Origin: Escherichia phage WPEC3
Length of the DNA: 64,000 bases
Strand: one strand, 5' to 3'
Sequence record: PV611058
Part shown: piece after piece, positions 17,370-19,035 of the stretch
How the letters are laid out: each line of letters begins with the position of its first letter
How positions within the stretch are numbered: position 1 is the stretch's first letter
Translations under genes and position numbers: made by a program
Notes under the pieces: model-generated
The model's input: the letters and a program-made list of their open reading frames with translations, nothing else
Told to the model about the DNA's origin: nothing
Database searches by the model: none

Positions 17370-17825
17370 TTACAACATTTTTTGAATATGATCTACGAGT
17401 TTATACAGTTTAGTGTTTTCATTCTCGTATTCCAAATCAACTTCAACTTTGAATTCTTCTTCAAGTTCCATGATCATTTCAATCCAGTCAAGCCAATCGA
17501 ATTTAAATTTTTCCACGACTTCACATTTAGTAAGATGGAAGTTCATTGATACATCTTTTTCGGATGCATTTTTGTCGCGACTTGTAATGAATTTGACAAT
17601 TGCTTTTTCAACGTCAGTTAGTTCACGTGTGCGATATTCTGGTTCAAGATACCATTCGCCATTATTGATAGCTTCCAACGAAAGTCTAAGTTCATGCATT
17701 AGTTTATAACGATCAGTACTTTTATGGATGCGGTTAACTTCGCGATTCAGTACACGTAGTGCGTCTTTGATTTGTTCGTTTAGCATAACAATCCTCTTAT
17801 TTTTTACTGTACCATTGCATTTCAC
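17370..17825 (-). CDS. hypothetical protein
   Basis: 151 aa ORF (start may be an internal Met). Confidence 0.45.
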   Translation of the reverse strand: MKCNGTVKNKRIVMLNEQIKDALRVLNREVNRIHKSTDRYKLMHELRLSLEAINNGEWYLEPEYRTRELTDVEKAIVKFITSRDKNASEKDVSMNFHLTKCEVVEKFKFDWLDWIEMIMELEEEFKVEVDLEYENENTKLYKLVDHIQKML

Positions 17826-19035
17826 GGATATCTAATAGTACCTTCGTAGCCAACTTTATGTTTGGTCGCTTCGGTAGATGGGTCTTATGATACGCCACAT
17901 TTCGGATGTAGTCAACCTTTTCGTTGAAATAATCCATAACTTCTTGATACAACCACTTCCCGTTACGAATGTCCATCAACATAGCAGCATCCGGTCGGTG
18001 AACTTGGATGATACCAGTTTCAAGTGCTTCCTGTGCTGTATTCAGCAGCCTGACTGTATGCATTGCGTGTTTACAATCATAACCGTGGTGTGATTCAAGA
18101 ATAGCACGTTTGGCATTACGATTCTGCTTCCATTTGTGATAACTCTTACGGTTCTCACTATTTTCTTTGTATTCCTTTTCATTGAATTTTACAATGAGTT
18201 CAGGACGAACTTTCAATTCTTCTGAAGTACGTTCTTTGTTGAAATAACGTAGTGAACCATCAGCATTCACTGTACTTTCATTCGGGTTGATAATTACCCC
18301 AAAGATGTTTTCACCGTAATGGATTAGTTCATATCCAGAATTATAATTCAATAAATTGAAATCACGATCTAATACTTTATCAGTACTATAATTATGTACT
18401 AAACGTACAAAATGATATTGTTTCAATGCTTGTGTTGAAACTAATTGTAATGAAGTATCACGCATGTATTTTTCAAAATCAATTTTTGTAGCATTGAATG
18501 GGTGAAGATTGGATTTATTCAAACGGTCAACCAAATACTGCGGGAATGTATCATACATCCATGAAAGTACTTCGTCAACTGGATGTTCTTCTAAAATTTC
18601 ATTTAGTTTACGTTCAGCAATTCGTTCCTTATCGAGCCAGCCGTGGTGATTAGACATACGCTTAACCTGATTGTATGCATATCCACTGTATGAGTGTGCA
18701 ATCTTTGAACTCAATAATTGCTGATTGAATGAGCGTAGATAGTCATAGATTTCAGAACTTTCTACGATGTGTTCCGGTTTAACCCATAGTGATTCAAGAA
18801 TGTTTGGGTTAGCTTCAGTATACAGACTTAAGTACTGATTGATTTCATAAAATTTAGTATCTTCTTCAGAAGTATCTGAAACTTCCTTAACATTAAAAAA
18901 AGGAGTTAGGATATATTCTTTGTTTGCAAGGAAGATACCACGATAATCTGTATCACTTTCTGGTGTGCTTGTGCCATACGCCTGTGAACCTGCTAAGTGT
19001 TTCACAATAGTTTGTTCTAGAAAATTGTTTTTCAT
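17797..19035 (-). CDS. Pol-beta-fold nucleotidyltransferase domain protein
   Basis: 412 aa; N-terminal hG[GS]-x10-DxD signature (LAGSQAYGTSTPESDTDY), large helical C-terminal region. Confidence 0.5.
   Translation of the reverse strand: MKNNFLEQTIVKHLAGSQAYGTSTPESDTDYRGIFLANKEYILTPFFNVKEVSDTSEEDTKFYEINQYLSLYTEANPNILESLWVKPEHIVESSEIYDYLRSFNQQLLSSKIAHSYSGYAYNQVKRMSNHHGWLDKERIAERKLNEILEEHPVDEVLSWMYDTFPQYLVDRLNKSNLHPFNATKIDFEKYMRDTSLQLVSTQALKQYHFVRLVHNYSTDKVLDRDFNLLNYNSGYELIHYGENIFGVIINPNESTVNADGSLRYFNKERTSEELKVRPELIVKFNEKEYKENSENRKSYHKWKQNRNAKRAILESHHGYDCKHAMHTVRLLNTAQEALETGIIQVHRPDAAMLMDIRNGKWLYQEVMDYFNEKVDYIRNVAYHKTHLPKRPNIKLATKVLLDIREMQWYSKK

Follow-up and report, generated by a model that had tools for sequence, protein, structure and literature searches.

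Within the 64,000-nucleotide stretch of Escherichia phage WPEC3 considered here (sequence record PV611058; the whole stretch is called the window), one gene on the minus strand encodes a nucleotidyltransferase (NTase) of the RlaP family. The G+C content of the window is 32-38% and almost all of its genes lie on the minus strand; over 5.1 kb it is 99.0-99.5% identical to the jumbo coliphages EC.P1, Ecwhy_1, fEgEco12, WPEC5 and Turkey3, its identity to PBECO4 is about 86%, and it belongs to an Asteriusvirus-like jumbo coliphage. An initial annotation of the locus had described, with no strand given, an open reading frame (ORF) for a nucleotidyltransferase of 412 amino acids, of the polymerase beta (Pol-beta) fold and of unknown specificity; the reading frame is present as described and runs from ATG to TAA on the minus strand. 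Its start codon overlaps the stop codon of the upstream gene (ATGA), and AAGGAG is found 14 nucleotides upstream of the start. Public databases hold proteins reported as 100% identical to the NTase under the names 'nucleotidyltransferase domain-containing protein' or 'DNA polymerase beta superfamily protein', and the copy in phage WPEC5 is annotated 'nucleotidyltransferase, RlaP superfamily'. The gene and the parts of its product are as follows.

17797..19035, minus strand: RlaP-family (PF10127 / phrog_388) nucleotidyltransferase gene (ATG-to-TAA ORF, 412 amino acids, 48.9 kDa)
18985..18990, minus strand: G16-S17 of the hG[GS] motif (codons verified by translation)
18946..18954, minus strand: D28-T29-D30, predicted first two catalytic carboxylates (codons verified by translation)
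18859..18861, minus strand: D59, at the beginning of strand 60-64 and predicted to be the third catalytic carboxylate (conservation, NrdC.11 alignment, model)
18706..19035, minus strand: N-terminal Pol-beta nucleotidyltransferase core, residues 1-110, acidic, isoelectric point (pI) 4.5 (Pfam match, model, pI)
18436..18636, minus strand: helical insert of about 65 amino acids, residues 134-200, marking the 'long form' of the family (alignment, model helices)
18181..18435, minus strand: beta-rich middle subdomain, residues ~201-285, between core and helical domain (model strands)
17800..18180, minus strand: C-terminal basic helical domain, residues 286-412, pI 9.6, with 24 Lys+Arg; presumed side of the cleft that binds nucleoside triphosphate (NTP) and RNA
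18049..18078, minus strand: D320-C321-K322-H323-A-M-H326-T-V-R329, the most conserved C-terminal motif (conservation, intein site, NrdC.11 match)

Family membership and the active site

The Pfam family PF10127 (RlaP, 'RNA repair pathway DNA polymerase beta family') matches residues 14-131 of the NTase with 62.1 bits (E 8.8e-17; the gathering score of the family is 23), and in PHROGs the protein is matched over its whole length by phrog_388, 'nucleotidyltransferase' (3.4e-75). A phmmer scan, which covered 1.84 billion cluster representatives in full, returned 6509 of them at E<=1e-3 and 395 at E<=1e-30, and tblastn found the family in 1639 phage records; precomputed PF10127 matches are present on every homolog listed except P0088, a truncated entry of 287 amino acids. 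In T4-like phages the match is to nrdC.11, and the hhalign comparison with T4-type NrdC.11 (probability 97.5%, E 5.9e-12) spans both the N-terminal and the C-terminal domains; by this alignment the NTase is a full-length remote homolog of that protein. An NCBIfam search of the NTase gave noise only, PADLOC models gave zero matches, and Pfam detected no PolyA_pol head, RNA-binding or HD domain in it. The gene thus encodes an RlaP-family (PF10127) Pol-beta nucleotidyltransferase with an intact active site, and genes of this kind, together with their predicted role in jumbo phages, have already been described in the literature.

The signature hG[GS]-x10-DxD, which had been noticed near the N-terminus, is found there as HLA15-G16-S17-QAYGTSTPES-D28-T29-D30, with exactly ten residues (Q18-S27) between A15-G16-S17 and the DxD. 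Its conservation was followed in two sets, one of 81 homologs with 40-91% identity and one of 134 representatives of 50%-identity clusters, for which ungapped rows were counted, and in both sets the GS and DxD residues are conserved. Among the 81 homologs, G16, S17, D30, E58, D59 and E64 are invariant and D28 is kept in at least 90%; in the wider set, G16, S17 and D28 are identical in 129 of 129 rows and D30 is kept in 129 of 130. A search for a third acidic residue, which the initial annotation had advised, led to D59. The catalytic triad is predicted to be D28/D30/D59 because residue 59 is always acidic in the wider set (D in 118 and E in 13 of 131 rows) and is the only one of E58, D59 and E64 to align with an acidic residue (Asp) in NrdC.11, whereas E58 and E64 vary.

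Domain organisation

An AlphaFold2 model of the NTase, made with the alignment of 81 sequences, is of high confidence (predicted local distance difference test, pLDDT, 91.7; predicted template modelling score, pTM, 0.81). It begins with an alpha/beta NTase core (residues ~1-110) and continues with a long helix that carries a helical insert (112-200), a beta-rich subdomain (~201-285, with strands at 210-215, 235-241, 244-249 and 280-284) and a helical bundle (286-409). The long helical region proposed to follow the motif can therefore be recognised in the helix with its insert and again in the bundle, but it is not continuous, as the beta-rich subdomain intervenes. The Pol-beta-type fold itself was correctly anticipated: the confident model matches only nucleotidyltransferase folds and HEPN-like helical bundles. 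Foldseek of the model against the PDB gave nothing at E<=1e-3, and PDB sequence searches with the single protein, with an 81-sequence profile or with the middle region alone found no relative. For the beta-rich middle subdomain, Pfam, the PDB sequence search and the family and structure comparisons returned no match.

The helical insert is missing from the short-form homologs of about 340-370 amino acids (alignment A1) and is present in eleven further cluster representatives of 403-436 amino acids, ten of which align through it at 30-40% identity; P0212, a long-form representative, aligns only on both sides of it. The sharing of the insert was shown by pairwise BLAST, MAFFT having misaligned this region in the broad set.

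The C-terminal motif, inteins and fusions

In the C-terminal motif, K322 is present in 134/134, H326 in 132/134 and R329 in 133/133 rows of the wider set, and further conserved residues of the domain are W302, R306, N307, R310, D320, R347 and D349. By hhalign the motif is common to NrdC.11 (GIDWKALSHACR). At least nine homologs of about 700 amino acids (P0121, P0127, P0125, P0134, P0135, P0146, P0161, P0199 and P0247; also P0092) carry an insertion of about 250-340 amino acids exactly between D320 and residue 321 (positions 18073-18078 of the window). At the junctions GYD is followed by CY...HGN and this by [C/T/S]KHAMH, and one of the insertions contains a LAGLIDADG domain; by its sequence features the insertion is a classical intein. 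Inteins as a rule sit in functionally critical motifs, and their placement here therefore marks the D-x-K-H motif as functionally critical.

One further homolog, P0169, joins an RlaP-type NTase to a C-terminal 3'-5' exonuclease of DEDD/RNase_T type, confirmed by Pfam PF00929, and the C-terminal extensions of P0149, P0162, P0194 and P0216 resemble this exonuclease by eye only. Such an architecture suggests that the trimming of nucleic-acid 3' ends is coupled to the re-addition of nucleotides, and the fusions support the RNA-repair function proposed below because they are expected for 3'-end processing.

Characterised relatives

RlaP (RNA ligase-associated Pol-beta) was defined from its linkage to RNA ligases (Burroughs & Aravind 2016, as cited in the two papers that follow). 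In the survey of Iyer et al. 2021 (PMC7824862) it is the most prevalent repair NTase of jumbo phages, its distribution mirrors that of RNA ligases, and it is predicted to restore, before ligation, nucleotides lost to enzymes such as RloC. Biochemical data come from two Pseudomonas enzymes, PfRlaP and PaRlaP, which were reported by Carruthers, Fatma & Huang (bioRxiv 10.64898/2025.12.29.696909) to add 1-2 nucleoside monophosphates (NMP) to RNA 3'-OH ends. Any NTP and also dATP can serve as donor, Mn2+ is preferred, the damaged end of a cleaved-tRNA mimic is the preferred acceptor, DNA and proteins are not modified, and aminoacylation of a tRNA without one nucleotide is partly restored. In the crystal structure of PfRlaP from the same preprint, the NTase and C-terminal helical domains enclose a cleft whose NTP pocket is acidic and whose RNA face is basic. 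T4 NrdC.11 is listed there among the family members whose function is unknown. Under laboratory conditions T4 can do without the block nrdC.11-mobD.3. With respect to the specificity that the initial annotation had left unknown, the family level is now covered by the Pseudomonas members, which act on RNA 3'-OH, while for the phage clade that statement stands.

The phage NTase resembles PfRlaP and PaRlaP in its PF10127 match, in three conserved acidic residues, in the modelled succession of an N-terminal core and a C-terminal helical domain, with an acidic and a presumed RNA-binding basic side, and in the linkage of its wider clade to RNA-repair genes. Its acidic core and basic C-terminal domain would agree with the charge layout of the PfRlaP crystal structure, a comparison made by description. 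It is unlike PfRlaP, again compared by description only, in having about 150 residues (insert 134-200 and subdomain ~201-285) between the two domains, and unlike the Pseudomonas RlaPs in being phage-encoded with no ligase gene alongside. T4 NrdC.11 has in common with it the GS...DxD signature, the third Asp and the D-x-K...H..R motifs, and is encoded among early and nucleotide-metabolism genes of a large myovirus in which Pnkp and Rnl1 are found as well. On the other hand, their identity is about 27% over aligned columns, BLAST detects the N-terminal ~150 residues only, and NrdC.11, with 336 amino acids, is without most of the middle region. The phrog_388 members of Vequintavirinae-like, Rak2-like and Vibrio phages (e.g. 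GAP31_112 and D69 VPHD69_0119) share 33-37% identity, the conserved motifs and the beta-rich middle subdomain, but are of the short form (~340-370 amino acids) without the 134-200 insert, and their genes usually lie a few kb from that of a CCA-adding enzyme, as against 12 kb in this phage. The middle subdomain, the helical insert, the intein site and the exonuclease fusions are unmentioned in Iyer et al. 2021 and in the Carruthers preprint; the wider literature was not searched for them.

Genes around the nucleotidyltransferase in the window

The following further features of the window bear on RNA metabolism or on the transcription of the NTase gene.

4593..5708, minus strand: class II CCA-adding enzyme (tRNA nucleotidyltransferase), at a distance of 12 kb from the NTase gene and a functional companion of it (PolyA_pol head 5.7e-19, PolyA_pol_RNAbd 2.1e-9)
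50189..50494, minus strand: homolog of a 162-amino-acid 'hydrolase' found between the CCA and RlaP genes in other phages (tblastn 1.5e-11, 6.5e-11)
55136..56068, minus strand: polynucleotide kinase-phosphatase (T4 Pnkp type), RNA-repair companion (HAD_PNKP 1.4e-42, AAA_33 2.7e-13)
56891..58033, minus strand: RNA ligase 1 (T4 RnlA type), RNA-repair companion (RNA_lig_T4_1 6.4e-14, T4_Rnl1_C 2.6e-16, WPEC5 annotation)
21060..21088, minus strand: best match to a sigma-70-like promoter, TTGACG-17-TATAAT, 11/12; the intergenic gap that holds it is the only one of some size upstream of the NTase gene
15979..16008, minus strand: terminator-like hairpin with a T-run after the HNH gene (consensus match, not functional evidence)

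A separate, canonical CCA-adding enzyme had been recognised at the first of these loci, and both of its Pfam domains bear this out; its N-terminal ~205 amino acids are 47-52% identical to the tRNA nucleotidyltransferases of Cronobacter phage GAP31 and Vibrio phage D69. Class II CCA-adding enzymes resemble the NTase in belonging to the Pol-beta superfamily, in template-independent addition to RNA 3' ends and in being often encoded beside RlaP homologs. The NTase was rejected as one of them, the PolyA_pol head and the RNA-binding body and tail being absent from it and present in the separate gene, and the expectation that it probably has another role was thus upheld. The counterpart of Pnkp in WPEC5 is annotated 'polynucleotide kinase, pseT'. 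The 'hydrolase' of GAP31 scores 18.9 bits against PTH2, below the cut-off of 23, and the product of 50189-50494 is possibly PTH2-like, a weak assignment. By these assignments the window holds a dispersed set for tRNA and RNA maintenance, all on the minus strand, which comprises the CCA-adding enzyme, possibly a PTH2-like protein, Pnkp and Rnl1; it contains no tRNA genes.

Upstream of the NTase gene lie a 133-amino-acid ORF and three tandem paralogs, and downstream an ORF resembling an acyl carrier protein (ACP), followed by a spanin-like pair and an HNH endonuclease gene. Pfam found no domain in the 133-amino-acid upstream gene, in the ACP-like gene or in the three paralogs, and no HEPN-type neighbour of the NTase gene. 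The 133-amino-acid gene and the ACP-like gene are conserved in close jumbo-phage relatives only, and a dedicated two-component system with an operon partner was rejected, no partner being conserved outside close relatives. The hairpin after the HNH gene is the putative end of a nine-gene unit that contains the NTase gene. Sigma-70-like sites in the region do not exceed the number expected by chance, and the promoter listed above is a suggestion only.

For the ACP-like gene (17370-17786, minus strand) the ORF list gives a GTG start at 17825, but the start is most likely the ATG at 17786, with GAGGA 5 nucleotides upstream. The C-terminus of its product resembles an acyl carrier protein helix (FDWLDWIEMIMELEEEF), but the place of the phosphopantetheinylated Ser of ACPs is taken by Trp; in records of related phages the product is named acyl or D-alanyl carrier protein. 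The three tandem paralogs (19436-21036, minus strand; 169, 173 and 188 amino acids) belong to the putative transcription unit of the NTase, and the first two show 28-31% identity to each other's positions in the PBECO4-like locus L005. Further upstream, 21107-23836 (minus strand) encodes an unannotated protein of 909 amino acids, probably structural; large paralogs of it stand in tandem in related jumbo phages (two or three matches per locus, 28-73% identity).

Elsewhere in the window, positions 39083-39840 (the first repeat copy starting at 38932) are a sequencing or assembly artefact that interrupts a Sir2-like 'NAD-dependent protein deacylase' gene. The segment contains five homopolymer runs of 70-78 C or G, with a G+C content of up to 0.74 against a background of 0.34. 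The Illumina TruSeq read-through adapter AGATCGGAAGAGCACACGTCTGAACTCCAGTCAC occurs in it twice, at 39321-39354 and at 39784-39817, and in front of each copy stands the P5 end in reverse complement (39303-39320 and 39766-39783). A local segment of 74 nucleotides is present in three copies (38932-39005, 39083-39156 and 39531-39604).

Gene context of homologs in phages and bacteria

Co-location was counted in 80 viral loci from IMG/VR at a distance of 10 kb and in 80 bacterial loci at a distance of 8 kb; the counts are raw, several candidate companion genes were considered, and for the phages the 20-kb windows come from genomes of 100-350 kb. A CCA-adding enzyme is encoded within the set distance in 14/80 viral loci (the two genes are direct neighbours in L019 and L022 and have one gene between them in L060), Thg1 in 8/80, which are Rak2-like jumbo phages, and Rnl1 in 4/80. 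In GAP31 the NTase homolog lies 2.1 kb from the tRNA nucleotidyltransferase gene, and in D69 it lies 2.4 kb from that gene, with Thg1 1.1 kb and RnlA 2.6 kb downstream. In bacteria a CCA-enzyme-like gene is found in 7/80 loci, immediately downstream in L119, L122, L133, L136 and L137, Pfam confirming both the CCA-like and the NTase genes only in L122. RtcB is encoded nearby in 3/80 bacterial loci. One of these, in a metagenome-assembled genome of the Thioalkalispiraceae (L087, 756-9050), has the order rtcR, a Ro60-like TROVE/vWA gene, rtcB, rtcA, a tRNase Z-like metallo-beta-lactamase gene on the opposite strand, and then the RlaP homolog, whose 360 amino acids are 35% identical to the phage NTase over the whole length. 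The association of the NTase with RNA repair and RNA ligases is thus seen at the level of clade and genome, not by adjacency in the window.

Proposed function and its alternatives

Built on family membership, on the conservation of the catalytic and C-terminal motifs, on a confident model and on the association of the family with genes for RNA repair and tRNA ends, the function favoured here is the extension of damaged RNA 3'-OH ends, mainly those of tRNA, by one or a few nucleotides without a template, which would feed Pnkp and Rnl1 or the CCA-adding enzyme. This is probably, though by no means surely, what the enzyme does. The acceptor (RNA 3'-OH), the number of nucleotides, the metal and the biological role are taken from distant relatives and from gene context, and likely apply here. 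For catalysis, D28, D30 and D59 would act together with a pair of divalent metal ions, which in the characterised relatives are Mn2+. With any NTP as donor, the enzyme would attach one NMP or a few, without a template, to the 3'-OH of an RNA, mostly a tRNA, that has been broken or trimmed and is seated on the basic C-terminal helical domain facing the acidic NTase core. Nucleotides that anticodon nucleases of the host, or other toxins directed at tRNA, had taken away would in this way be put back, after which phage Pnkp and Rnl1 would reseal the RNA, or the phage CCA-adding enzyme would complete the 3' end, and translation would survive the host defence. Among the functions that the initial annotation had listed, nucleic-acid (RNA) nucleotidylylation is favoured because two Pseudomonas members of PF10127 add 1-2 NMP to RNA 3'-OH and not to DNA or proteins. 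Membership in the CD-NTase, MNT/AbiEii or antibiotic-NTase groups found no support from Pfam, PADLOC or structure.

Several points weigh against this function. With regard to the protein, the Pfam alignment covers just residues 14-131, and the long-form clade has ~150 extra residues (helical insert and beta subdomain). As for the relatives, the preprint on the Pseudomonas enzymes (bioRxiv 10.64898/2025.12.29.696909) describes a PF10127 similarity network of many clusters in which these enzymes stand apart from T4 NrdC.11; the enzyme data concern PfRlaP and PaRlaP only, both outside this phage clade, nucleotide insertion is largely non-specific, and the 3'-OH product is incompatible with RtcB. 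As for the context, the NTase gene lies 37-39 kb from Rnl1 and Pnkp and 12 kb from the CCA gene and so adjoins none of them, the genes directly beside it are uncharacterised, with no partner kept beyond close relatives, and part of the co-location could reflect chance, shared descent or a general clustering of early genes.

The best-placed alternative is that the NTase repairs the acceptor end of tRNA together with the CCA-adding enzyme, and not with a ligase: the discriminator base or an eroded acceptor stem would be rebuilt and CCA then added. The commonest close neighbour is indeed the CCA-adding enzyme and not a ligase (the 14 viral and seven bacterial loci counted above, GAP31 and D69), and a PTH2-like protein, which would likewise act on tRNA 3' ends, is often encoded between the CCA and RlaP genes. 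However, PfRlaP favoured the anticodon-loop end over the acceptor 3' end of the cleaved-tRNA mimic, linkage to RtcB and Rnl1 exists too, and the PTH2 assignment is below threshold; acceptor-end repair is considered unlikely. We know of no toxin that requires exactly this rebuilding before CCA addition. A related proposal, that the ~150 extra residues give the long-form clade an acceptor specificity of its own, for eroded tRNA acceptor ends handed to the CCA enzyme or, with less likelihood, for decoys of the HalB kind, is quite doubtful; were the acceptor-end option to hold, the phage would counter a class of host toxin not yet linked to phage repair.

A synthase similar to HalB or to the CD-NTases, making free or protein-primed oligonucleotides or cyclic nucleotides that act as a signal or as an anti-defence decoy (e.g. 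oligo-dA supplied to keep the Hailong channel closed), is highly improbable. HalB (PDB 9dbh/9dbj), the template-independent oligodeoxyadenylate synthase of the anti-phage system Hailong, is a tetrameric, tyrosine-primed protein of 217 amino acids paired with the HalA channel; it is 14% identical to the NTase, with no detectable sequence relationship. The NTase was accordingly not assigned to HalB, PADLOC giving no match either, and its neighbours were not specifically screened for a HalA-like protein. The sequence searches, even with the 81-sequence profile, had shown no similarity to any PDB chain, the Foldseek matches reach an E of only ~0.03 and a TM-score of ~0.2 of the query, and the gene context points to RNA repair and not to signalling. 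The structure comparison with CD-NTases and MNT/AbiEii that had been recommended gave weak Foldseek matches only and placed the protein in neither group. CD-NTases were rejected, with no Pfam family or PADLOC match and with CdnC, CdnE and LpCdnE structures matching at E 0.7-1.5, that is, at E~1 (TM ~0.1). MNT/AbiEii was also rejected, with no Pfam or PADLOC match and MNT structures at E 0.1-1.6, the HEPN-like bundle being the C-terminal domain of the NTase itself.

There is a very slim chance that the enzyme extends DNA 3' ends without a template and serves in the repair, replication or end protection of phage DNA. An HNH endonuclease in its putative unit, the endonuclease V gene (denV) that adjoins the homolog in D69, exonuclease fusions that could be DNA-directed and the use of dATP as donor by PfRlaP would fit such a role, but PfRlaP extended no DNA acceptor of any form, the recurrent neighbours are tRNA and RNA enzymes, and the HNH gene is likely a mobile element, not found near short-form homologs. 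A similarly slim chance attaches to nucleotidylylation of proteins or small molecules (AMPylation or antibiotic-type adenylylation), to which weak fold matches with KNTase/ANT(4'), LinB, ANT(9), DrrA and GlnE and the resemblance of the C-terminal bundle to the HEPN/KNTase-C type would point, membership in KNTase/ANT/LinB having been rejected on family hidden Markov models and whole-length structural similarity.

Significance

If the repair activity proposed here holds, the phage would possess a four-part tRNA repair kit, in which Pnkp heals, Rnl1 seals, the CCA enzyme restores the acceptor end and RlaP replaces lost nucleotides, and it could survive host nucleases that cut and trim tRNA, such as RloC. 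The idea of such a kit has already been published (Iyer et al. 2021, PMC7824862, and, as cited there and in the Carruthers preprint, Burroughs & Aravind 2016) and is partly backed by the biochemistry of bacterial members; the finding is therefore a confirmation of what is known, not an extension of it. The gene at 17797-19035 can be annotated as an RlaP-family RNA-repair nucleotidyltransferase instead of a generic NTase, and in the phage clade that includes T4 NrdC.11 the domain additions and the intein-marked D-x-K-H motif are worth experimental targeting.

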